A stretch of DNA of 37,283 nt. It comes from a virus. Lineage: Duplodnaviria > Caudoviricetes. The notes below the pieces were generated by a model. That model did not search any database, was not told the DNA's origin, and saw nothing but the letters and a program-made list of their open reading frames with translations. The translations under genes and the position numbers were made by a program. The stretch is from IMG/VR virus record IMGVR_UViG_3300033067_001749, positions 1 through 37,283 of that record; one strand, given 5' to 3'. Shown here in pieces: positions 3,646 through 27,423 of this stretch (position 1 is its first letter; every line of letters starts with the position of its first letter).

Positions 3646-3996
3646 ATGAAAACGTTTAAGTTTGTTCCGTCGATTTGCAAAGGTGAAGATGCTCTTTGGG
3701 AAGGATCGATCACATTAAGATCGGTCACTTTTAAAGAAAAGCACGAATATTATGAAATGCTCAGCGTGGAAGATGACGGCGAGGTCAAAACAAAGAGCGT
3801 TAGTAATAGCGTCAAGCAAAATTTGCAGTTAGTTGAAATGTCTGAAAAACATTACATCGCTGTAGAGCTTAAGCGAAAAGACGGGACAGCCGAAGCTAAG
3901 AGTTTCCAGGATATGTGTGAAGACGACGAGCTCCATGAAGCATTGATGGAAGTCGCGACACGAATTATCTCGGGCTCAAAAGTGGGAAACGGCTAA
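3646..3996 (+). CDS. Tail assembly chaperone (lambda gpG-like)
   Basis: Between tube and tape measure; ends with slippery heptamer G GGA AAC just before the stop. Confidence 0.8.
   Translation: MKTFKFVPSICKGEDALWEGSITLRSVTFKEKHEYYEMLSVEDDGEVKTKSVSNSVKQNLQLVEMSEKHYIAVELKRKDGTAEAKSFQDMCEDDELHEALMEVATRIISGSKVGNG
3984..3990 (+). other. Programmed -1 ribosomal frameshift site G_GGA_AAC
   Basis: X XXY YYZ heptamer in the correct phase; the -1 frame (CGG CTA AGG GCC GAC CTC GAA TTG) is open into 4011..4226. Confidence 0.85.
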
Positions 3997-4226
3997 GGGC
4001 CGACCTCGAATTGCAAGCGAGATCCTCATACAACGGGAGCTCGTTTGTGGGCGAGGCGGTCCATATATTCGCCGAGTATGTGCAGCGTAAACGTTTGGCT
4101 AAACTAGGTTATACGTCGAATATTGACGATCTAGAATCCTGGAAAGCGGAAGCGTTCATTATTATAGATACCGAACTAGATGCTTGCCAAAATCGCGAAA
4201 TGAAAAAGGCGGCTAAACGTGGCTAA
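3990..4226 (+). CDS. Frameshift extension of the tail chaperone (gpGT-like C-terminal part)
   Basis: -1 frame continuation; 4011 TTG has no convincing RBS; overlaps the tape measure start. Confidence 0.75.
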   Translation, partial: RLRADLELQARSSYNGSSFVGEAVHIFAEYVQRKRLAKLGYTSNIDDLESWKAEAFIIIDTELDACQNREMKKAAKRG

Positions 4227-13237: not shown

Positions 13238-14020
13238 TTAGTCTGTCGATTTGACGTTAATGAAACCGGCTTCGTCGCCGATTTTATCGCATCCAAACGG
13301 CACCAAGGCATAACCTTTATCACCCCATGAGGTTCCCCAGCTGTTCGCCATGATCCACTTGTTATCTTTCGTCCAGCCGACGATATTTACCATGTGGTTG
13401 ATGCCTCTATTCTTGCAGTAAGTCAACTCTTTTGCTTGTCCGCCCCAGCCAGATCCGGCGGCAACAGTTACAAACAAAACGCCGTGCTCGAGTAGCGCGG
13501 TTTTCATCTCTTGAACCGAGGGAGCTTTGTTGGGTTGACCGATAAGTTTATAGCTGACGGCCTTGGCAGCCACAGGCACTTTTTTGCAGCGCAAATCAGC
13601 CGCGCGGTATGGGAAGTCTTTTTCTAAGCCGAGACCGTGGTCGATCACATATTGAGCCGATTCCATGTAGCCGCCACTGCAACCTGCCGCCGCCCTATCA
13701 CAAGAAACGAGTTCTTGCTCGGCCAAATCAAGCCCAGGTTTATCAGCTAAAAGCGCCATAGAAGATTCTAGAGATTTTGTTATTGCATGTGCCCAGCACG
13801 AGCCACAAGCACCTTGATCACGAATGCCTGGAAGCTTGCCAGTTTCACGAAGATCGAGCGCGTCAGGAAGGTCGACGCGTGATTCTATTTTAACGTATTG
13901 AGCAGGGTTGCCGTTTAAAAGGTGGCCAAGGTAGCCTGTGCCGCGAGGACCGTTTACCGTGCTAACACCGTCAGCGTAAGCAGGCAAAGCAAAACAGAGC
14001 AAAGCAAGTAGCTTAAACAT
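13238..14020 (-). CDS. Secreted papain-family (C1A) cysteine protease
   Basis: QGACGSCWAH, LAEQELVSCD, GCSGG, INHMVNIVGW, MANSWG..WGDKGY give the complete Q/C/H/N site; start reassigned to ATG 14020 (RBS GGAGG), giving signal peptide MFKLLALLCFALPAYA. Confidence 0.93.
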   Translation of the reverse strand: MFKLLALLCFALPAYADGVSTVNGPRGTGYLGHLLNGNPAQYVKIESRVDLPDALDLRETGKLPGIRDQGACGSCWAHAITKSLESSMALLADKPGLDLAEQELVSCDRAAAGCSGGYMESAQYVIDHGLGLEKDFPYRAADLRCKKVPVAAKAVSYKLIGQPNKAPSVQEMKTALLEHGVLFVTVAAGSGWGGQAKELTYCKNRGINHMVNIVGWTKDNKWIMANSWGTSWGDKGYALVPFGCDKIGDEAGFINVKSTD

Positions 14021-14054
14021 AGAAACCTCCAAAGAGTAAATTTGGAGAATTCTA

Positions 14055-14354
14055 TCACGAAAGAGGTCTATTTGGCTTGGGGTCAAGCTGGGGAAGTGGC
14101 GCGAGCGGTGGCGGTGGGGTGTCGTTTCTGCGGCCCCAGAACCGCCACCAGCGTTGTTCGCGGCGGGTGGCTAGGCGGGCTTTCACGACGTCTTCTTTAG
14201 TCTCGTTTTTGACCGTAGTCTGCTTTGTGGACTCTTGGTCCTGCTTCGTCTCTTGTTCGGCGATCTTTCCAGAGTTGATACCTCTGAACGCATAGCCAAC
14301 ACCGATTAAAATGAAAATCCCGAGCACAAGATAAACGATTGGACTAGAAAGCAT
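14055..14354 (-). CDS. Single-pass membrane protein with polar linker, WWRFW motif and Pro-rich tail
   Basis: TM IVYLVLGIFILIGVGYAF; RBS GAGGG; co-oriented with the protease. Confidence 0.75.
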   Translation of the reverse strand: MLSSPIVYLVLGIFILIGVGYAFRGINSGKIAEQETKQDQESTKQTTVKNETKEDVVKARLATRREQRWWRFWGRRNDTPPPPLAPLPQLDPKPNRPLS

Positions 14355-15355: not shown

Positions 15356-15510
15356 CTATCACCAACCCGCAGCGGCGGACATTTCGCACATCGTTTGATA
15401 TCTATCATTCCGTTCTTCGCAGGCTCGCCCCAGCGTTTGTTACAATGGCTGCACAACCACCTATAGGGAATATGGGTACCTATTATTTTTTTGACTTTAT
15501 TTTCGCTCAT
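15352..15510 (-). CDS. 52-aa zinc-finger micro-protein
   Basis: Hand-read: MSENKVKK...CSHC...CAKC...DR; ATGA overlaps at both ends. Confidence 0.65.
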   Translation of the reverse strand: MSENKVKKIIGTHIPYRWLCSHCNKRWGEPAKNGMIDIKRCAKCPPLRVGDR

Positions 15511-16262
15511 TTCTTTCTAGTCCCATATTGATTTTTCCAATTTAATTTAATGTCTGCTGGTTTAGTCACAGCTATTTCGTGGTCCCATCCATTTTTAATA
15601 CGGCCTTTAATTGCGTGATAACTTACACCGAATATTTTACTCCATTCCTTAATCAATTTAGTTTCTCCAAAAGCAGTAGCAAATAAACTATCTCTAGAAA
15701 GTCTTCTAGTAGGTTCGGGCGGTCTTAATTTTAAACAATTTTTACACGTAACTGATGCCCATCGGGCATAAACTATTCCGTTCTTATTGCACAAAGAATC
15801 GTAAATATTTTTCTTTTTATGAATAATTTTGTTTTTAGGTAGGACTTTTTTCCAAAGGAGTCCTTGTCTGATTTGATATACATAGCTTTGACTTATTTTA
15901 AATTTAGCAGACAATTCTTCTGTCGATTTTTTTGATTTAAAAATATCCAAAACATCTGATTCAGATAACTTTAATCCTGTCTGTTTGTTTCTACTTTGTT
16001 CATGATCGTTAGCCCATCTGCAATTTTTTGGTTCGTAATTTCCATTTACATCGATCCGATCTAAAGTAGTTCCTTTAGGTCTAGGCCCCATATCAGCATA
16101 AAAATTTTCAAATTTATGCCATCGTTTGCAAACTTTAATTCCTCTGCCGCCATAAGATTTCCATTCTTCTCGATTTTTATTTCGACACCTTGTCAGCATT
16201 GAATACCAACTTATATACGCTGGCGTGCCGTATAAACCGTGTTTTAATGGGCCTTTACTCAT
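15507..16262 (-). CDS. HNH-family homing endonuclease-like protein with extra HTH modules
   Basis: HG...SWYSMLTRC...YGGRGIKVCKRW..FENFYADMG...LDRIDVNGNYEPKNCRWA; start reassigned to ATG 16262 (ATGA overlap). Confidence 0.85.
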   Translation of the reverse strand: MSKGPLKHGLYGTPAYISWYSMLTRCRNKNREEWKSYGGRGIKVCKRWHKFENFYADMGPRPKGTTLDRIDVNGNYEPKNCRWANDHEQSRNKQTGLKLSESDVLDIFKSKKSTEELSAKFKISQSYVYQIRQGLLWKKVLPKNKIIHKKKNIYDSLCNKNGIVYARWASVTCKNCLKLRPPEPTRRLSRDSLFATAFGETKLIKEWSKIFGVSYHAIKGRIKNGWDHEIAVTKPADIKLNWKNQYGTRKK

Positions 16263-16339
16263 TTCATCGGCCTCAAAAGTATGAAGATAAACGTGCACAT
16301 CACGAGGAAAATAATGAACCCATCCCAACTAGATGTCAT
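16259..16339 (-). CDS. 26-aa membrane peptide MTSSWDGFIIFLVMCTFIFILLRPMK
   Basis: Hand-read; RBS GAGGTG; ATGA overlaps at both ends; single TM. Confidence 0.6.
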   Translation of the reverse strand: MTSSWDGFIIFLVMCTFIFILLRPMK

Positions 16340-17120: not shown

Positions 17121-17585
17121 ATGGCTTTTGATCCATGTAATCTAGAGATTACCGACCGAGACTACGCTAAACTTGCGCCTTGGTTTGCTGAGAAGCTCAG
17201 GCATACGATCGAGCTTTGCCACAACGCTGGTTATCAAATTGCGATGCTTGAGGGCTATCGCTCGCCCGATCGGCAAGACTACCTTTACTCGAAGGGTCGC
17301 TCGCTCCCAGGCAAAAAGATCACCTACGCACGCGGGTGGGAGTCTTTCCATCAATACTCTGTCGCAGCGGACATTGCTCTTTATGACGGCCGAGTTTGGT
17401 CGTGGGACGCGCCGTGGGACGAGATCCATAAAATTTTCCACGCGCAAGGTTTTGAAACTTTAGAATTTGAAGCGAGTCACGTTCAAATCACCGGCGGCAT
17501 GAGGTGGCAAGAGGCTTATAAAATAAGTAGGGCGCAAGGAATGCTCGGACTTTGGTCGGTTATTCAACAGCGGAGTTTATTCTAG
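17121..17585 (+). CDS. Endolysin, peptidase M15C (L-Ala-D-Glu peptidase) family
   Basis: EGYRS..RQDYLY..GR, SFHQYSVAAD (SxHxxxxAxD), EASHVQ; start reassigned to ATG 17121 behind GAGGG. Confidence 0.9.
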   Translation: MAFDPCNLEITDRDYAKLAPWFAEKLRHTIELCHNAGYQIAMLEGYRSPDRQDYLYSKGRSLPGKKITYARGWESFHQYSVAADIALYDGRVWSWDAPWDEIHKIFHAQGFETLEFEASHVQITGGMRWQEAYKISRAQGMLGLWSVIQQRSLF

Positions 17586-18115
17586 TAAATCCGCAAATGA
17601 GTCCCTTGTTCTAAACGAGCCCATGAAAGCGTTCCGCCGTTTTTAAGAAACTGTCGAACCGCGTCCGTGTTAAGAGAATAGAAAGTATTAATCGTAATAA
17701 ATTCTACTGGTATCGCTTCGTGTTCGGATAAAACGTTATTTACGTGACGATGACTAACTTGCACATCAAGCTTAAGAGATTCGGGGTTTTTACGAACTCC
17801 GATCTTGTCGCCCTCGTCGGATTTCCACGGCAAGTTAGGGTTATTCTCGACCTGATATTTAAGACGCTCTTTAATTTCTTTCTCTAATCGCTCGGCGACT
17901 TTAGCTCTGTGCATTAAGACTTTGGCGCGAGTTTCGTAAAATTCTGCGTTTTTCTTAAGTGTCTCGATAACGTGAACATACGCGCCAACTTTCTCGGCAT
18001 GAGCCATTTTCGCATCGGCAAATCGCTCGATCAGATCAAGTGGGATTTCGGACGCAAGGCCTACTTCGTCGCAAAGATCCTCGAGCTGACTAGTTAGTAC
18101 GGCTAACGTGCTCAT
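17582..18115 (-). CDS. Siphovirus Gp157-family protein
   Basis: Coiled-coil N-terminus (EKVGAYVHVIETLK...RLEKEIKERL), VRKNPESL, and C-terminal LKNGGTLSWARLEQGTHLRI; next to an annealing protein. Confidence 0.8.
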   Translation of the reverse strand: MSTLAVLTSQLEDLCDEVGLASEIPLDLIERFADAKMAHAEKVGAYVHVIETLKKNAEFYETRAKVLMHRAKVAERLEKEIKERLKYQVENNPNLPWKSDEGDKIGVRKNPESLKLDVQVSHRHVNNVLSEHEAIPVEFITINTFYSLNTDAVRQFLKNGGTLSWARLEQGTHLRIY

Positions 18116-18639
18116 CCCACGATTACCCCGTCGATATCTACCGTCGCGCCAAGCTCTTCAGGGGTGTAACTAATCCCGCCAATACAGTCGGGGAACATGC
18201 TTCGAGCCATGTCGGTTATGCATCGAGAAAAAAGCATATTTCGTGGGTATTTTTGCCAGCTAGGGTTAGCGAGTAATAACGCCTTTTTGGCGTCTTCCAT
18301 CGAAAATTCAAACGCGCACTCTTCCGAACCGGGACGAGACGCTTTAATAATACAGCGCTCGGCCGTTCTTTCGACGATATTAATTTTAGCCTGGGGGCAG
18401 TTCTTTCTAATTAGAAACTGCATCCCCTCTGCTCCGATCGTCGGTTTTCCGCCGATAATATTTATCTGCGCAAAACTTTGCATCATCGGCAGGCCGACCT
18501 CTACACCTTTAATCGCGATCGCCATAGCCTGCTCGGGCGTTTTAATAGAAGGCGGTAAAAAACCGCTTTTAACAAGCATCTCGGCTTGTTCTTTCATTGC
18601 GATAAACGTTTCCCCTTGGACTACTAAGCTCTGACTCAT
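18112..18639 (-). CDS. recT: RecT/Red-beta-like single-strand annealing protein (core domain only)
   Basis: G.EVGLP.MQS...INIIGGKP, WQKYPRNML..R...ARSMFPD..G..YTPEE. Confidence 0.8.
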   Translation of the reverse strand: MSQSLVVQGETFIAMKEQAEMLVKSGFLPPSIKTPEQAMAIAIKGVEVGLPMMQSFAQINIIGGKPTIGAEGMQFLIRKNCPQAKINIVERTAERCIIKASRPGSEECAFEFSMEDAKKALLLANPSWQKYPRNMLFSRCITDMARSMFPDCIGGISYTPEELGATVDIDGVIVG

Positions 18640-18817
18640 TTTCTATTCCTTCTTCTATAATTTTTAAAAGTCTTTCGACTTGAAACCACGGAACTTTTTT
18701 TCGGTCTACCCAACGGTCGATAACGCTCGTATTATCGTAGCCTAAAAGCCACGTAAGCTTAGCCTTATTATTTTTTTTCAACCACCGCACCAGTAATTTG
18801 TTTACATCTTTTTCCAT
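18569..18817 (-). CDS. Cro-like helix-turn-helix regulator
   Basis: KAKLTWLLGYDNTSVIDRWVDRKKVP; first gene of the leftward arm at a divergent junction. Confidence 0.55.
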   Translation of the reverse strand: MEKDVNKLLVRWLKKNNKAKLTWLLGYDNTSVIDRWVDRKKVPWFQVERLLKIIEEGIENESELSSPRGNVYRNERTSRDAC

Positions 18818-18873
18818 ATGTGTAACCTTATATAATAAATGTTGAACAAAAGTAAAGAGAATGTTTTCTTACG
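18818..18873. promoter_or_regulatory. Divergent early control region
   Basis: AT-rich gap between divergent genes with TATAAT at 18831-18836 and -10-like hexamers on the minus strand. Confidence 0.5.
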
Positions 18874-19128
18874 ATGAAGATAACAGACTATTATGACGGC
18901 CGCAATAACGACCACAAGCTATTTTTAGCCCAGGAAGTCGCTAAACTAGGCCACTTTGATAAGAAGGAACTTCGCGAGCTTTCGGGGGCAATGACTGTCC
19001 ACGGTATGAGGCTTTGCGAACTACTTAGGGCTTGTCGGTCGTACATCGATAACCCTTTTGGAAAATATTTCTATTTAGAAAAGGATTTAGAAAATGGAAC
19101 TAGGAAAGCAGCTGGCTCGAATCGTTGA
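18874..19128 (+). CDS. Hypothetical protein
   Basis: 84-aa first gene of the rightward replication operon. Confidence 0.6.
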   Translation: MKITDYYDGRNNDHKLFLAQEVAKLGHFDKKELRELSGAMTVHGMRLCELLRACRSYIDNPFGKYFYLEKDLENGTRKAAGSNR

Positions 19129-19535
19129 CTACGGCATGACTAAGACAAAAAAAGGCGGGGCTCAAGTATTCGTACAATTTCAGGTCGGCGGAGAAATCTC
19201 GACTTGGTACGGTGTTCCTTTTAAAAATGATGGCGAAGTTAACGACCGGTTTTGACCTAAGCGAACACTCGTTTGACCAACTAGCGTTAGGTATCGTTTC
19301 TGGGATTCTCGTTATGGATGAAGACATTGACATTGTCGTAAAAGATTCTACCCAGCCGGACGGTACTGTTAAACGTCGAATCGATACGATCGGTGATATC
19401 GGCCCGGCTCGGGCGTCTCAAGAGGAGCTTGATCAAATCCTGGATGAAGAGAAGAAAGAAAAATTAAAGGCAGCGGCTGGTAAGTATAAAGTACGAGCGA
19501 AAAAACCTAAAGCAACGGACTCAGTGCCATTTTAA
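19094..19535 (+). CDS. SSB-like (DUF669-like) protein split by a +1 frame change at 19250-19256
   Basis: ATG 19094 with RBS AAGGA gives MELGKQLARIVDYGMTKTKKGGAQVFVQFQ...STWYG...DRF* (TGA 19253-19255); +1 frame continues DLSEHSF...DSVPF, an SSB-type C-terminal tip; joined product 146 aa. Confidence 0.65.
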
Positions 19536-21042
19536 TACCTAGACCTTATCAAAAATTAGCTATCGAAGAAATAAGGAGACTCTATGCCGCTGGCTGCAAG
19601 CGTGTTTTATTACAACTTGCAACCGGCGGTGGTTGAGTAAAACTTTTATCTTTAGCACTATCATGAATGGTGCCAAGTCTAAAGGACGCCGTTGTATCAT
19701 GGCTGTTAGAGGACGTTCGCTAGTCGAGCAGGCCAGCGCGCGTCTTATCGAGATGAGAGTAGATCACTCCGTTTATATGGCCGGAGATAAACGTTTTAAT
19801 CCTACTAAAAATATTCAGATCGTAAGTATCGATACCTTTAGATCAAGGGGTGTGATCCTCCCGGCTGATATCGTCGTTATCGACGAGGCTCACTACGCGG
19901 TTTCTAAATCTTTTAAAAACTTTATATCTAATTACTCTTCCGCTTACATTCTCGCGGTTACCGCGACGCCGTGGGTAAAAGGCGGATTAAAACACGTCGC
20001 CGACGAGCTTATTTATCCGATCTCTATTTCGGAATTAACGGCGCAAAATTATCTTGTACCAGCGAAGTATTTCGTCCCAACTAAGTTCGATTCTAGTAAA
20101 ATTAAAACCGTAAAAGGCGAGTTTAACGAAGAGGACGCTTTAATGGAGTTTAAGACGCAGTGCGTTTACGGCGACGTCGTAAAGACTCTTGAGAAGTGTC
20201 GCGGAGAACCTACGTTTTGTTTTGCGATTAATTTAAAACATGCCAATGAATTAAATTCATCTTTTATGATCGACGGTTTTAAATCCGTCGTCATCTCTGG
20301 GGAAACGCCGCTCGATGAACGTAAGTTCGAATTAAATAGACTAGCTTTAGGCGAATTAGATGTAATCGTCTCCGTCGGCACGATGACGACCGGAGTAGAC
20401 TTTCCGCCGCTTAAAAATATTATCCACTGTCGTCCGACTAAATCTAAAAATCTTTATATTCAAATCCTCGGACGTGGTACGAGACCAAGCGCGGGGAAAG
20501 ATCACTTTAAAGTTTACGACCACGTCGGTAATACGCAGCGCCACGGATTTTTAATAGACGAACAAAAAGCTTCGTTAGAAGGCGAAGAAAAGAAAACGGG
20601 TAAAAAGTCAACTAACGAACTATCTATTAAAACATGTCCGGAATGCTATGCCGCAGTTCCTTCGGCGACAAAAAAATGCGACTGCGGCCACGAATTTGAG
20701 GTAAAAGAAACCACGGTAAAAGAATCTAAAGATCACGGGATGATCGAAGTCGGCCAAGATGTTCGCTCGCGAATGAAAGTTCGCTGCGAATACTATTTGA
20801 ACACAGCCTGGTCTAAGGGCTGGAAAGTCGGCGCTATTTATATGAAACTTAAGGACGAGTTCGGCGATGAAGCTATGCGAGAAAACTGGCAAATTTACAG
20901 GTCAGCAAAAACAAAATGGGAAAAATGGATCAACGGAACTACACCAGCTCCTTGTCAATTCGCTGTTGATAAGTTTAAACAGCAAGCCGTTTATTCGGGC
21001 TTTCAAACAGACGACGGGAACGGGGAGGACCTTATATGGTAA
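19535..21042 (+). CDS. SF2 DEAD/DEAH helicase with C-terminal zinc ribbon; frame broken inside Walker A
   Basis: Upstream frame has Q-motif PRPYQ and VLLQLATGGG* (TGA 19634-19636); KTFIF follows in another frame, then DEAH, TATP, TGVDFP, QILGRGTR, CPEC/CDCG. Confidence 0.85.
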
Positions 21043-21307
21043 TTCCGTTATAAAATTCGGCGTCGTCGGATCTGCCGATATTAACGGCCTTCTTTTAGGC
21101 GGTTACCGATTCGAGGTAGAATGTAAAAGCGGAAACGCGCGGCAATCCGATCAGCAAAAAAAGTATCAGGCCATGATCGAGCGACTAGGCGGAATCTACT
21201 TAGTCGCGCGGATCGAAGACGAATCATCTTTAAAAGAAGTCTGCGAAACAATCTGTGATCAGCTACAAGAAATTCTCAGGCTACGAGGCGTCGCAGTATC
21301 GCTCTAA
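20867..21307 (+). CDS. VRR-NUC domain nuclease
   Basis: G.ADI...FEVECKS...RQSDQQKKYQ..IERLGG.YLVAR (PD-(D/E)xK); start uncertain. Confidence 0.85.
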   Translation: MKLCEKTGKFTGQQKQNGKNGSTELHQLLVNSLLISLNSKPFIRAFKQTTGTGRTLYGNSVIKFGVVGSADINGLLLGGYRFEVECKSGNARQSDQQKKYQAMIERLGGIYLVARIEDESSLKEVCETICDQLQEILRLRGVAVSL

Positions 21308-22007
21308 TTTTTTGCGTCTATCTAATTTCGACCTATTTCAAGAAATAATTACGACCCACGCTTGGTCTCCAATCATCTGGAAAAATGATTATGCAAGAAC
21401 TGATAATTTTGAGTTTAGTGACTTTCTCGTTCTTGATTTTGATGAACCTGGATCCGAAACCCTAGACGATATAAATAATTCGCTATCGGACCATAAACGA
21501 ATTATCGCGACGACGCGGTCACACCAAATAGAAAAAAACGGTATCGTCTGCGATCGTTTCCGTTTGATTGTTCCGTGGGATAAAAGAATTACCGACTATA
21601 AAATTTACCGCGCTAATTACGAAAAAGTTTTATCTAAATACGACTGGGCCGATAAGTCGTGTCTCGACGGCGCGCGTTTCTTTTTCCCGTCTAAAAAAGT
21701 GATCTATTTAGATCGCGACGCAGAATATAAATGGGAAATTACAGAAACGATTCCGATTCTACCGGTAGAAAAGGTAGAGAAAAAAATTCCCCGCGAAATC
21801 CCTAGTTGGTGCTTAAACTTCATCAACAACGGTGCTATCTATAATGGCTCTAGAAATTTAAAAGTATTTGCGGTCGCTCTCGAATTGTTTGAGCGCGATT
21901 TTAACGAAGCTGAAATTAGAAGGCTGCTTCTACGTGCTCCAATTAATTGGGTCGGGGTAAACGTAGAGGCAGCCTTAAAGTCGGCTAAAACAAAAGCGGG
22001 GAAATGA
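21255..22007 (+). CDS. Archaeo-eukaryotic primase (primase-polymerase) with C-terminal PriCT-like domain
   Basis: FLVLDFDE (DxD), TTRSH, RFRLIVP, ADKSCLDGARFFFP, GSRNLKVF. Confidence 0.75.
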   Translation: MISYKKFSGYEASQYRSNFLRLSNFDLFQEIITTHAWSPIIWKNDYARTDNFEFSDFLVLDFDEPGSETLDDINNSLSDHKRIIATTRSHQIEKNGIVCDRFRLIVPWDKRITDYKIYRANYEKVLSKYDWADKSCLDGARFFFPSKKVIYLDRDAEYKWEITETIPILPVEKVEKKIPREIPSWCLNFINNGAIYNGSRNLKVFAVALELFERDFNEAEIRRLLLRAPINWVGVNVEAALKSAKTKAGK

Positions 22008-23266
22008 TGTCACAGAACGAATTTAAAAAAAACCTAATTATCGAAGTCGCTATTAACTCTATTACTCATTACATAATTTATAAAAAATTAGATTTTAAAG
22101 TTTATCGAGATAACAGCGGTAACGTAGAACCGGCTCGAGTTCAAGATGGGTTAGTTAAAATACTTCATTTAGACTCTGAGGCTATACCTCATATTAAGCA
22201 TATTGGAAAAGAACTATACAAATCAGGTTCATTAAATGATGCTTTTAAAAAAACAGAGATACTTTATTTTACTCATAGTTCTGCAAAGCAAGTTTTAAAA
22301 ACTCTTTGCGCCGTCCCCGAACTTTGGATTTCTGAACCAGTAAAAACGTTTGCGTTTAAATCGGATCCGTCTCTCGCCTTTCACCGCATACCTTTTGATC
22401 TTTGTGATACCGAACAGTTAACGCCTAATTGGGATCTTTTCCTTGCAAATTTTACAAATATCCAAGCCCTTAAGATTTGGGTCGGATCTCTTTTTGTCGA
22501 AAATTCAGATCGCTCTCAGTATCTTTGGCTTTACGGCAAAGGCGGTAACGGTAAATCCACTCTCGCAAAAATTATCTCGCGCGTGCTCGGCGATTTCGCA
22601 CGTCAAGATCAAGTTCCATCAAAAGACGATAAGTATTGGACACACGGCCTTCTCCATACTCGTCTTGTTATTCTCGACGACTGTAACAACTACGGCTTTG
22701 TCAAGACTGGGCTGTTTAAATCTTGTACAGGTATGGGTAAGGCTCGCGTCGAAAAGAAGTTTGGCGACGCATATAATGCCGATTTGGACTGTAAGTTTCT
22801 TTTTACGTCGAACGAAAAGCCGATGATTTCGAACGAGATCGCAGATCAGCGCAGATTGATATTCTGCAGCGCGAAGAACCAAGAGGGGTTCTCCTATGAC
22901 CCAGACTTTGAAAAGAGATTGGAGACCGAATTAGCCGCGTTTATTTCGAATTGTGTGCTGCTTTACAAATCCGAGTGCGGAGACGGCCGCCCTATACCCG
23001 TCGACCAGACCGAAGCGCTCGAGCTCGGCGGCGTCTTTAACGAGGAGATTGAATCATGGTTAGAGACTAATTTTGAGTACGATCCAAATTCATATGTAGA
23101 TGTTTCTGTATTTCGCGAGATGCTTAGCTTTACTCGGCTTAATGATCGTCGCGTTTATAGCTTTTTAGAAGAACAAAATATTAAACGTTCGACGAGAATT
23201 TATAATCAAAAGTTAGTAAAAACACTCAAAGGACTTCGTCAAAAGGTTTTTGCGATTAAAAATTAG
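22004..23266 (+). CDS. SF3 (D5/P4-alpha-like) replicative helicase
   Basis: Walker A YGKGGNGKST, Walker B LVILDD, motif C LFTSNEKP, Arg finger RRL. Confidence 0.88.
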   Translation: MMSQNEFKKNLIIEVAINSITHYIIYKKLDFKVYRDNSGNVEPARVQDGLVKILHLDSEAIPHIKHIGKELYKSGSLNDAFKKTEILYFTHSSAKQVLKTLCAVPELWISEPVKTFAFKSDPSLAFHRIPFDLCDTEQLTPNWDLFLANFTNIQALKIWVGSLFVENSDRSQYLWLYGKGGNGKSTLAKIISRVLGDFARQDQVPSKDDKYWTHGLLHTRLVILDDCNNYGFVKTGLFKSCTGMGKARVEKKFGDAYNADLDCKFLFTSNEKPMISNEIADQRRLIFCSAKNQEGFSYDPDFEKRLETELAAFISNCVLLYKSECGDGRPIPVDQTEALELGGVFNEEIESWLETNFEYDPNSYVDVSVFREMLSFTRLNDRRVYSFLEEQNIKRSTRIYNQKLVKTLKGLRQKVFAIKN

Positions 23267-23270
23267 GCAA

Positions 23271-23387
23271 TATACCGATATACCGATATACCGGTTTCTC
23301 CTTATTTATTATTATATATTTTCTGCCTATATATTACGCATATTTTTCCTATTAAATTTAATACGGTATACCGGTATATACGGTATA
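23271..23387. repeat. Putative replication origin: opposed iteron triplets around an AT-rich core
   Basis: TATACCG at 23271, 23279, 23287; reverse complement CGGTATA at 23364, 23372, 23381; AT-rich spacer; directly after the SF3 helicase. Confidence 0.8.
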
Positions 23388-23478
23388 TAAGCTCAAAAAA
23401 TAGGCATAATAAGCGCTTTTACGCTCTAGCTAATAGCGCGGCAATCGGCTATAACCCCTGTGCTGCAAGGGGTGCGCC

Positions 23479-23706
23479 GTGATAAAGATCTTAATTAGCG
23501 CCGATGATCTGCGTAAAATTACTCACAAGAGCATGAGAATGCCTATTTTTAGAGCTGTGAATGAGCTCGAAATAGACGACGACTTCGTGAGCCCATTGTC
23601 TGCACTTTGGTCGCTTGGATACATTGCTCGAATCGAGGACGAGCGGCGAATCGAACAAACACACGCCAAAAAAGTAGACGAAAACGAACCGTCCCGGCTA
23701 TCCTAA
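23479..23706 (+). CDS. Hypothetical protein
   Basis: 75 aa, GTG start behind AAGGGG. Confidence 0.6.
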   Translation: MIKILISADDLRKITHKSMRMPIFRAVNELEIDDDFVSPLSALWSLGYIARIEDERRIEQTHAKKVDENEPSRLS

Positions 23707-23749
23707 TATTTATACAACGAGACAAATCGCGCGAGTGGGGGCAAGGGAT

Positions 23750-23878
23750 ATGCTCATGCATGATATTACTGTCGTAATACCTGATTGGGCTGTTTGCGCG
23801 TTTTGGTTCGCGCTCTACCTTGTGTCAATTGCCACTGTGGTAATTGGCGCTATTTGCCTGTGGGCGATAAAGGAATAA
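23750..23878 (+). CDS. 42-aa single-TM membrane protein
   Basis: Hand-read: MLMHDITVVIPDWAVCAFWFALYLVSIATVVIGAICLWAIKE; G-rich RBS. Confidence 0.6.
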   Translation: MLMHDITVVIPDWAVCAFWFALYLVSIATVVIGAICLWAIKE

Positions 23879-23880
23879 GT

Positions 23881-24135
23881 ATGCAGCTAACAAATCTAGT
23901 CGTTTTTACTTTATTCCTAGCGCTGGCTCTTTACGATGCTTTCGTAGTTTATTTTCTCGGACGTTCATCAAACATTAGTTTATCGGTTTCTCGAGCTTTA
24001 GAACGGCTTGGGCTCAACTCACCGGTTTTTGTATTCGTAACAGGTTGTCTGATAGGTCACCTGATATTTAGCATGTCTACCGACTGCTCGCAGTGTCTTA
24101 AACCTGTCGAAGTCGGAGTCGTAGAATCGCCATGA
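23881..24135 (+). CDS. Two-TM membrane protein, holin candidate
   Basis: Start reassigned to ATG 23881 (RBS AAGGA); TMs LVVFTLFLALALYDAFVVYFL and PVFVFVTGCLIGHLIF. Confidence 0.65.
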   Translation: MQLTNLVVFTLFLALALYDAFVVYFLGRSSNISLSVSRALERLGLNSPVFVFVTGCLIGHLIFSMSTDCSQCLKPVEVGVVESP

Positions 24136-25498: not shown

Positions 25499-26167
25499 AT
25501 GAAAAGAGTATGTGCAGAAAGCAGAATCGGCCAAAGATTTGAGAGAATAGTGATTTTAGAGATTTTTTATAGAAAGTTTAAAGGCGGCGGGAAAACAATG
25601 TATGCCAAAACTAGATGTGATTGCGGAAAATTAAAAAATATTGCAGTTCAAAATTTAGTTAAAGGTCATACGAGGTCGTGTGGATGTTATAACAAAGAAG
25701 TTCTTTCGGTCAGATCCAAAAAACATGGTTATAGTAGAACAAGAACCTATCGTATTTGGCGCCATATGCGAAGCAGATGCGAATCTAAAACCCATTCTCG
25801 ATATGCTGAATGGGGTGGCCGAGGAATTACAGTTTGTGAACGATGGAAAAAATTCGAAAACTTTTTAACTGACATGGGAGAAGCTCCTAAAAATGCGAGC
25901 ATTGACAGAATAGATAATAATAAAGGATATTTTTTAGAAAACTGTCGATGGGCAGATGCTTTCATACAAGCCCAAAATAAAAATTGGGACGAAGATCAAG
26001 GCGTAAGAAAACAGCCAAAGTGCAATAATAAATGGAAGGCTAGATTTACTCTTTTTGGGGAAAGGTATGTTTTTTGTGGATTCAATTCAAAAGAAGAGGC
26101 TATTGTTTTTAGAAAGAATAAAATTGATGAAATTAGGCTAATGCACAAAAAATGTGCTAATATTTGA
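25499..26167 (+). CDS. HNH-family homing endonuclease-like protein with AP2-like C-terminus
   Basis: CDCG...TRSCGC, WGGRGITVCERW..FENFLTDMG, IDRIDNNKGY..ENCRWA, then GVR...WKARF...GFNSKEEA. Confidence 0.85.
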   Translation: MKRVCAESRIGQRFERIVILEIFYRKFKGGGKTMYAKTRCDCGKLKNIAVQNLVKGHTRSCGCYNKEVLSVRSKKHGYSRTRTYRIWRHMRSRCESKTHSRYAEWGGRGITVCERWKKFENFLTDMGEAPKNASIDRIDNNKGYFLENCRWADAFIQAQNKNWDEDQGVRKQPKCNNKWKARFTLFGERYVFCGFNSKEEAIVFRKNKIDEIRLMHKKCANI

Positions 26168-26458: not shown

Positions 26459-26866
26459 ATGCCCGCAGGTCAGCCTACGAAGTTTCGCCCTGAATATTGC
26501 GCGATGTTGATCGAACACATGTCGCGAGGTCTTTCATTTGAAACATTCGGCGCAAAGATAGATGTATGTAGGGCTACAATCTATAATTGGGAAAAAGAAA
26601 ATCCTGAATTCTTAGACGCCAAAAAAATAGCCTTCGATAAATGTCAACTATTTTGGGAAGAAAAGTGCATTGAGCACATCGTTTCTATCTCTGAAAATGA
26701 AAGAGATGGTCAATATTCTAAGTCATCGACCAAGACGCTAAATACTGGCGCTTGGATTTTCAATATGAAGAATCGATTCAAATGGACCGATAAGTCTGAG
26801 CCTTCAACAGATGATGATAAGCCGATCACACTTGGTTATGATCCAGCAAGACTCGGCGATAAATGA
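26459..26866 (+). CDS. terS: Terminase small subunit
   Basis: MPAGQPTKFRPEYC, HTH (CRATIYNWEKENPEFLDA), WIFNMKNRFKWTDK. Confidence 0.8.
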   Translation: MPAGQPTKFRPEYCAMLIEHMSRGLSFETFGAKIDVCRATIYNWEKENPEFLDAKKIAFDKCQLFWEEKCIEHIVSISENERDGQYSKSSTKTLNTGAWIFNMKNRFKWTDKSEPSTDDDKPITLGYDPARLGDK

Positions 26867-27423
26867 AACTATATCCATTAATTTTATCAAAAGCTAAAAC
26901 TTCAGGACTCAGCCAAGAAGACGCTGAAGATGTCGCGCAAGAAGTAATAATCAGCTGGATGGAGTACGAAAAAAAGCATGGAAAGCAAACAAGTCAAACT
27001 ATCAACCAAGCAATTATCGATGCTAAACGAAAATTGTATGGTCGCACTCGGGAACGCGGCCATACTGCAAAACATGCTTCAAGATTTGGAATCCAAGCCA
27101 ATAATGATGAAGAAAACCAGAACATTATTGAGTCATTGCCAGATCAATCTGAAGGATATTCAGACGTGTTTGAGGAATATAGAAACTATATTGACGACAT
27201 AAAACCAACTCTTTCGTTGAGAGAACAACAAGTAATAGAAATGATAATGGATGACATACCTCAAAGACAAATAGCAGATGTTTGCAGCGTCAATGAAACT
27301 AGAGTTAAACAATATAAAGACAAAATAATAAAAAAATTGAATTCGATTTATTTATTTTGGCAAAGAAAAGAGATGATTGAAGAAGATCGGACGTGTGTGC
27401 AAATAGATTGGATTTGCATATGA
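26863..27423 (+). CDS. Sigma70/ECF-like RNA polymerase sigma factor
   Basis: Region 2-like QEDAEDVAQEVII...AIIDAKRK; region 4-like LSLREQQVIEM...QRQIADVCSVNETRVKQ. Confidence 0.75.
   Translation: MKLYPLILSKAKTSGLSQEDAEDVAQEVIISWMEYEKKHGKQTSQTINQAIIDAKRKLYGRTRERGHTAKHASRFGIQANNDEENQNIIESLPDQSEGYSDVFEEYRNYIDDIKPTLSLREQQVIEMIMDDIPQRQIADVCSVNETRVKQYKDKIIKKLNSIYLFWQRKEMIEEDRTCVQIDWICI

Follow-up and report, generated by a model that had tools for sequence, protein, structure and literature searches.

The complete virus record IMGVR_UViG_3300033067_001749, analysed here over its full length of 37,283 nt and called the window below, describes a siphovirus-like phage whose gene set includes terminase, portal, capsid, tail tube and tape measure. 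Its replication block consists, in order, of an SSB-like gene, a RadD-like SF2 helicase gene, a VRR-NUC/resolvase-like gene, a primase gene and a D5-like helicase gene. Our subject is the RadD-like helicase, the only one of its type in the genome, whose reading frame is interrupted within the Walker A motif (P-loop). A match to PDB 6jde (E 1e-21) places the protein in the RadD/YejH-like family, and its best isolate match is Bdellovibrio phage phi1422 (38% identity). We found the DEAH box, the SAT-type motif, motif VI and the Zn finger in place, and a Walker A motif that is whole only when the sequence is read across the gap. Comparison of the terminase gave no informative hint of the host.

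The Walker A region reads ACC GGC GGT GGT, then TGAGT, then AAA ACT. The five surplus bases, stop codon first, lie at the Gly-Lys junction of the motif and directly behind a predicted hairpin. The TGA at 19634 stands directly 3' of the last Gly codon, and the two resulting open reading frames (ORFs) need to be joined without added residues. Reassignment of UGA was ruled out, as 13 of the 33 long ORFs of the window end in TGA and the frame would stay unrepaired.

Ten sequencing runs were listed for this region, three of which held at least half of its words, and four were compared. X1 is probably the source sample, while X2 and X3 belong to one other study and share a 19,757-nt contig (depth 18 and 36.5) from a sister strain. 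Over positions 17376-24000 this contig differs from the window by 109 substitutions and 32 gap letters, which make up five indels (1+1+1+3+26) at 18828, 18857, 18862, 18871 and, for the 26 nt, behind 19246. Substitutions in the sister strain were viewed for 40 of 180 rows, and its agreement at the helicase start and at the gap means absence of indels only. We found that the helicase start region, Walker A and the helicase/VRR-NUC overlap contain no indel in the sister strain and show 0 differences in X1, where record 5 is identical to 19261-20274. X1 has a depth of 5-8; the bin depth of 7.37 is the yield of just the two X1 records that stop at 19247 and restart at 19261. In addition, the protein of the sister contig (P0001) is 100% identical over 447 aa. 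The gap is thus real and not a sequencing error. A preliminary description of this DNA had taken the interruption for a UGA inserted in Walker A. That UGA is present and exact in X1, but it belongs to the 5-nt TGAGT, which also shifts the frame.

In a phylogenetic tree the sister group of the window's helicase is formed by P0003 and P0004. Among 120 listed homologs, these two, P0068 and P0081 have N-termini that are a shifted-frame reading of the Walker A region joined to K-T. These N-termini would imply a 4-nt surplus at the same junction, compatible with N-A-G-N. The predicted N-termini of P0009, P0010, P0011, P0020, P0024, P0030 and P0041 begin just before or inside Walker A and may hide non-canonical starts or gaps. 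A first locus scan with ORF2 of the window returned only one weak, unrelated locus. Among 240 homolog loci 229 have a contiguous GxGK motif and three, all from one sediment phage, are gapped (GGT-TAGGC-AAA); one locus broken elsewhere (L089) and seven truncated ones were dropped. Sense codons inserted in the motif were found in none of the 240.

Scanning for the motif followed by a stop, 0-9 nt and AAAAC gave 68 loci, 28 of which are helicases with the same architecture. The same pattern with AAGAC gave 120 loci from 56 of the 64 collection parts. The two scans together hold 75 gapped loci (some contigs were fetched twice) with 62 unique contexts, which fall into 21 lineages, defined at 75% identity, and 29 gap types of 4-11 nt; TAAGGC, TAGGT and TAATATGGA are examples. 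Both scans demanded a stop. A third scan did not (119 loci, 34 of 64 parts), and of the nine helicases that it returned one was intact and eight were gapped, with seven distinct gaps, all eight led by a stop. When gaps of 13-43 nt were sought, none of 30 loci was a helicase with a long gap, and one was a 1-nt version. A scan anchored on the hairpin, which drew 120 loci out of 10 of the 64 parts, only returned L429 again.

Two loci stand outside the counts of lineages and gap types. L812, a relative of L246 and L287, carries in Walker A (about position 2070, minus strand) a single extra T, GGG-T-AAA, which makes an in-frame TAA behind the same kind of flush hairpin (-19.3). Known from a single contig, this may be a version of the cassette with a +1 'shifty stop', or else an error of one base. 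L303 (2501-2534, minus strand) encodes an SNF2-like helicase, of a different helicase family, with the 11-nt gap GGA TAGGTTCGGGA AAA and a weak hairpin (-13.7). DNA searches of the isolate collection for cultured phages with the gap gave only 60-80% matches, the Walker A regions of which were not inspected. Of 401 genomes of one bacterial class, one matched the pattern, and its three hits were non-coding repeats. L788-L790 (G150) are a repeated non-coding hairpin element of a bacterial genome that fits the gap pattern by chance.

The stop codon is TAA in 15 of the 29 gap types, TAG in nine and TGA in five, and ten types are in-frame gaps of 6 or 9 nt such as GGT-TAA-GGC. We compared the last triplet of each gap with the take-off tRNA-Gly and found 14 exact matches, 15 with one mismatch and none worse. 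A landing within one mismatch is present in all 29 gap types, compared with 20 of 52 non-helicase pattern hits; a GGN landing is present in 20 of 29 compared with 9 of 52, and the nine non-GGN landings all keep a compatible third base. The last triplet would thus be readable by the take-off tRNA. In the L325 family (28 contexts, gut-type phages) the in-frame landing drifts between GGC, CGC and AGC under strong purifying selection, which makes this family a natural experiment on how far the P site tolerates a first-position mismatch.

The hairpin predicted upstream of the take-off codon was matched in stability by none of 200 shuffles. Under synonymous resampling, 17 of the 21 gapped lineages have a hairpin with z < -2, compared with 6 of 63 intact ones. 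In the LVLPTGCG family, where the peptide is nearly fixed, at least 12 of 13 pairs are present in 27 of 28 gapped but in only 1 of 107 intact sequences. Double-sided changes occur in 4 of 14 pairs in the hairpin group of the window (window, L083, L429, L526; 2 of 500 shuffles) and in 2 of 13 pairs of a second hairpin type, counts that are inflated by the relatedness of the sequences. For structure spanning the gap or 3' of it, gapped and intact genes were alike, with z -0.1 across the gap of the window. Prediction and covariation together point to a stimulatory structure 5' of the gap.

We then considered selection and spread. Raw pN/pS downstream of the gap is 0.04-0.27 in all seven multi-member lineages, and upstream it is 0.06-0.57 in the six lineages with differences. 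The ORF1 peptide is constrained by helicase function, and the gap is kept, with changing length, across about 60% protein identity. On a FastTree tree of 217 sequences the label changes 17 times between gapped and intact, compared with 27.7 when labels are shuffled, and the nearest intact relative of L083 is 0.08 away. Gapped genes are scattered among intact ones, which indicates several gains, transfers or losses rather than descent as one clade. Directly upstream, 8 of 24 gapped loci have an HNH or GIY-YIG endonuclease gene, as against 1 of 54 intact ones (Fisher 2e-4); no HNH remnant was found upstream of L429. P0120 (residues 30-40), L139 and L114 carry, in or next to the same Walker A, what we take from their motifs to be intein-like insertions, which suggests that this site is a homing hot spot. 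By analogy, a homing-endonuclease history like that of T4 gene 60 would fit the enrichment, and we regard such a history as fairly probable. The cassettes probably spread by homing endonucleases.

We propose that the helicase is made by a short programmed ribosomal hop, a miniature bypass like that of T4 gene 60. From the sequence comparisons we give this reading a probability of roughly 0.8. A hop is the only event that gives the same product whether the gap is 4, 5, 6, 7, 8, 9 or 11 nt long, because 229 of 240 homologs are contiguous at this site and no sense codons are inserted. At the point where GGU occupies the P site and UGA waits in the A site, the ribosome would enclose the 3' arm of the hairpin. 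The peptidyl-tRNA-Gly would leave GGU, slide five bases and re-pair at AGU, and decoding would resume at AAA to yield the native P-loop. The hairpin would zip as the mRNA leaves the exit channel and so push the ribosome forward, by up to about 11 nt. Some ten bases separate the P site from the ribosome exit, which would fit the 1-11 nt range of the gaps. The cassette may have arisen and spread by destroying the target of a free-standing homing endonuclease, and the window phage would since have lost the adjacent endonuclease. Helicase output may be kept low by initiation at a near-cognate codon (AUU or AUA) in combination with the hop.

The start of the helicase is unusual in its own right. 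The frame is open from 19511 and holds no ATG, GTG or TTG, as the preliminary description had reported. Of the candidate near-cognate codons (Table 1), ATA 19535 overlaps the upstream stop as TAATA, and the homolog L002 has TTG at the position of TTA 19532. An ATG or TTG start is present in 19 of the 21 gapped lineages, and one could not be scored. In L083 a TTG lies six codons upstream of a candidate ATA start, and therefore the non-canonical start is not part of the gap cassette; it is peculiar to the window.

We found that neither neighbour of the helicase needs recoding. In the SSB-like gene, the UGA-associated +1 break described earlier turned out to be a 26-nt deletion. The motif TTT TGA C (19250-19256) is present in the window and is the edge of this deletion. 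In X1 the sequence breaks off at 19247 in one contig and resumes at 19261 in the following one, which leaves the join without support from any contig seen. The 26 nt present in X2/X3 restore the frame, the protein of the sister strain (P0123) is whole at 155 aa, and L002 carries a segment matching the deletion. The break is likely a mis-join specific to this assembly and not a recoding signal. A prfB-like, RF2 (release factor 2)-sensing +1 shift does not account for it, as the joined product would lack the segment present in P0123 and L002. The SSB-like break is no part of the helicase bypass. Both pieces are without a Pfam or PHROG match, the name SSB-like being a label given from position and taken over from the preliminary description. 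The SSB-like and VRR-NUC pieces, used as protein queries, each found one protein and gave little information on starts.

The VRR-NUC frame is open from 20846, and ATG 20867, with a Shine-Dalgarno (SD) energy of -5.8, was the best of ten starts tested. At 20933-20935 the VRR-NUC frame of the window reads ACG, whereas L002 has ATG and other homologs likely have it too. Of 18 helicase tails matched in the first 31 homologs, with that of the window counted, 15 have D/N/H/Y followed by G/E here, which corresponds to ATG or ACG in the VRR-NUC frame; ACG 20933 is a possible second near-cognate start. The slippery run noted earlier at the overlap, GGGAAAA, does exist but is at chance level and is not needed, given the in-frame ATG. 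Since VRR-NUC lies +1 to the helicase frame, a -1 slip would miss it, and we found no -1 programmed frameshift between the two genes. The claim that consecutive genes are each recoded thus fell away, with an intact SSB-like gene in the sister strain and an ATG for VRR-NUC.

Table 1. Features of the replication block and related genes in the window
Feature	Position	Strand	Remarks
HNH endonuclease gene, PHROG 3377/374	15507..16328	-	family of the homing endonuclease genes directly upstream of several gapped helicases; not beside the helicase of the window
SSB-like gene	19094..19535	+	broken by 26-nt deletion in this assembly
26-nt deletion junction	19246..19247	+	unspanned by X1 contigs; filled in X2/X3
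Candidate near-cognate helicase starts	19529..19537	+	ATT 19529, TTA 19532, ATA 19535; weak SD
Helicase ORF1	19529..19633	+	runs from the Q motif (RPYQ) into Walker A (..LATGGG); some 33-35 codons
Predicted mRNA hairpin	19586..19630	+	-24.8 kcal/mol, z -4.0; ends one base before the take-off codon
Putative take-off codon GGT	19631..19633	+	last Gly of the P-loop
Coding gap TGAGT	19634..19638	+	stop TGA 19634-19636; putative landing AGT 19636-19638, one mismatch to tRNA-Gly GCC
Helicase ORF2	19639..21042	+	from the Walker A Lys (AAA); DEAH, SAT-type, QxxGRxxR motifs, Zn finger
VRR-NUC/resolvase-like gene	20867..21307	+	overlaps helicase tail; ATG 20867, or ACG 20933
GGGAAAA heptamer	20918..20924	+	not needed for expression; one of 164 such heptamers on + strand
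Primase and D5-like helicase/primase genes	21255..23266	+	uninterrupted
Second HNH endonuclease gene, PHROG 374/3377	25499..26167	+	not beside the helicase

Elsewhere in this 37-kb siphovirus we noted a papain-family (C1) peptidase gene at 13238-14086 (minus strand) and a gene for a sigma-70-like protein at 26863-27423 (plus strand). Two short ORFs at 3646-4226 sit between the gene for the tail tube and that for the tape measure, where a tail-chaperone frameshift is usually located. Within the endolysin gene, at 17266-17376, the sister strain carries a diverged 109-nt block.

Several observations weigh against a hop or against its proposed history. Gapped alleles are rare; in the LVLPTGCG family 58 gapped loci stand against about 1,800 intact stretches. 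The hairpin of the window reaches z of only -1.5 when scored over a 45-nt segment, four of the 21 gapped lineages are without a strong hairpin, and six of the 63 intact ones have one. The putative landing triplet AGU of the window mismatches in its first position, and one-mismatch landings make up 15 of the 29 gap types. The mini-SD and A-site stem-loop of T4 cannot fit a 5-nt gap, and initiation at TTG 19633, which is in frame, could yield ORF2 as a product of its own. The lineages are not independent, as the 17 label changes against 27.7 indicate, so that the p values overstate the significance. Of the eight upstream endonucleases, five are members of a single family (PHROG 374/3377) in related gut-type phages, and beside the helicase of the window or of L084 no endonuclease or remnant was found.

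The TTG leads to a different form of recoding, in which ORF2 is re-initiated at 19633 and forms a split enzyme with the ORF1 peptide; alternatively, a -1 shift or readthrough could add extra residues to the P-loop. The triplets TTG AGT AAA share the frame of ORF2 and overlap the TGA in the NTGA coupling pattern, and the 1-nt surplus of L812 would suit a plain +1 shift. However, the SD energy of TTG 19633 is -1.7, and neither L083, which has TTA there, nor the family with the in-frame TAA-GGC gap has a start codon at this site. Inserted residues are tolerated in none of the 240 homolog loci, and gaps of 4-11 nt would need different shifts yet obey one landing rule. We therefore consider these forms unlikely. 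The surplus bases might instead be removed before translation, through processing of the RNA, as a micro-intron or because the polymerase skips at the hairpin, and a strong adjoining hairpin could indeed act on RNA polymerase or a nuclease. A stop placed first in frame and a tRNA-Gly-compatible triplet placed last are, however, signatures at the level of the ribosome, and we know of no splicing that acts on 4-11 nt, which makes removal at the RNA level very improbable.

A dead gene or an assembly error, with the gap as a footprint in a dispensable helicase, would be in keeping with the error-like deletion 390 nt upstream in the same assembly, the low depth of X1 and the rarity of gapped alleles. 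Against this, the independent study has no indel here, P0001 is identical over 447 aa, and gapped lineages are under purifying selection on both sides of a gap that persists across diverged proteins. The hairpin and the landing rules would have no reason to persist in pseudogenes. This explanation is already largely refuted, and we give it very little credence. The preliminary description was correct on two points: production of the helicase calls for a non-standard translation event, and the gene is not decayed. It went further and suggested an RF2-specific switch over the whole replication operon, for which the UGA in the gap of the window and the non-canonical helicase start could be cited. 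Yet the SSB-like gene is intact in the sister strain, VRR-NUC has its in-frame ATG, nearly all gapped lineages start with ATG or TTG, and UGA is the minority stop, in 5 of 29 homologous gap types. We consider such a switch highly improbable. How efficient the hop is may still depend to a modest degree on the level of release factors, though not of RF2 specifically.

If the helicase is indeed made by a hop, these loci may define a minimal portable bypass module of a hairpin, a Gly codon, a stop and 1-8 bases. On this broader proposal we lean only slightly towards yes: a hop of 1-11 nt by ordinary bacterial ribosomes would be efficient enough for an essential enzyme, and the module would have repeatedly arisen in, or been carried into, helicase P-loops of phages from gut, freshwater and sediment, both as a shield against homing endonucleases and as a cargo that these carry. 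Its variants would include the first in-frame stop hops found in nature, and programmed bypassing would be a decoding rule common among phages instead of a curiosity of T4, with zipping at the mRNA exit setting the length of the hop. The loci form a natural allelic series at one codon, with gaps of 1, 4, 5, 6, 7, 8, 9 and 11 nt, three stops, exact and mismatched landings and two hairpin types. As the cassette is about 60 nt long and clonable, a forward-sliding driver, namely pairing of the mRNA as it leaves the ribosome, becomes directly testable. Annotation pipelines call such helicases truncated or give them false N-termini, as with P0001, P0003, P0004 and P0124.

In bacteria, the natural cases of bypassing known to us are T4 gene 60, its homologs and the phiHau3 terminase. 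We found no report of gaps of this sort in helicases in the full-text literature, a body of text that leaves most subscription papers outside its coverage. The proposed hop works like T4 gene 60 bypassing but is no member of that element: the gene is a helicase, the gap is 5 nt, no structure spans it and no endonuclease is adjacent in the window. With T4 gene 60 and its Myoviridae homologs the helicases share a Gly take-off, a stop in the A site and a landing read by the same tRNA (10.1101/2022.08.31.505936; 10.1101/2024.12.09.627546). They also share with T4 gene 60 an insertion at an invariant catalytic residue, a losable homing endonuclease and an upstream stem-loop as proposed driver. Manning and Atkins describe a T4 gap that protects against nicking by MobA and persists after loss of the endonuclease (10.1101/2022.08.31.505936), and pairing of the exiting mRNA has been proposed as the driver of bypass (10.1101/2024.12.09.627546). 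The T4 gap, however, is 50 nt long and lies in the topoisomerase TOPRIM domain, whereas the gaps here are 4-11 nt in a helicase Walker A, with no sequence homology between them. In the T4 type the 5' stem-loop is reported not to be conserved while the take-off stem-loop and mini-SD are, whereas here the conserved structure is wholly 5' and flush with take-off. Unlike T4 gene 60, the helicase gene is not split by an endonuclease, and half of the landings are mismatched.

The terminase of the Streptomyces phage phiHau3 has a 10-nt bypass with mass spectrometry support in E. coli for a UAA version (PMC10732093). It resembles the present case in its short gap (7-10 nt) after a Gly codon in a conserved motif of an essential phage ATPase, and in its RNA structure. 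Its trigger is the rare codon UUA, with a proposed developmental role, in 3 of 100 genes, while here the trigger is any stop, in hosts of many lineages. The word 'helicase' does not occur in the accessible text of PMC10732093. The mitochondrial byps of Magnusiomyces (PMC5009743) likewise have many short bypassed inserts and imperfectly matched landing codons, but they involve mitochondrial ribosomes, an unused codon and no dependence on context, compared with bacterial ribosomes, a stop, a fixed site and a conserved 5' hairpin here. The phi1422 helicase, of the same RadD/YejH-like family, matches as one piece over residues 1-444 and has no gap. The closest geometry is that of the synthetic stop-hops and +5/+6 hops of Weiss et al. 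1987, as cited in PMC5009743, in which matched codons lie on both sides of a stop and the +5/+6 spacing corresponds to the commonest class found here. That 2016 review gives natural in-frame stop hops as not known. The synthetic hops are artificial, whereas 10 of the 29 gap types described here are natural and in frame, and these supply candidates for natural in-frame stop hops.

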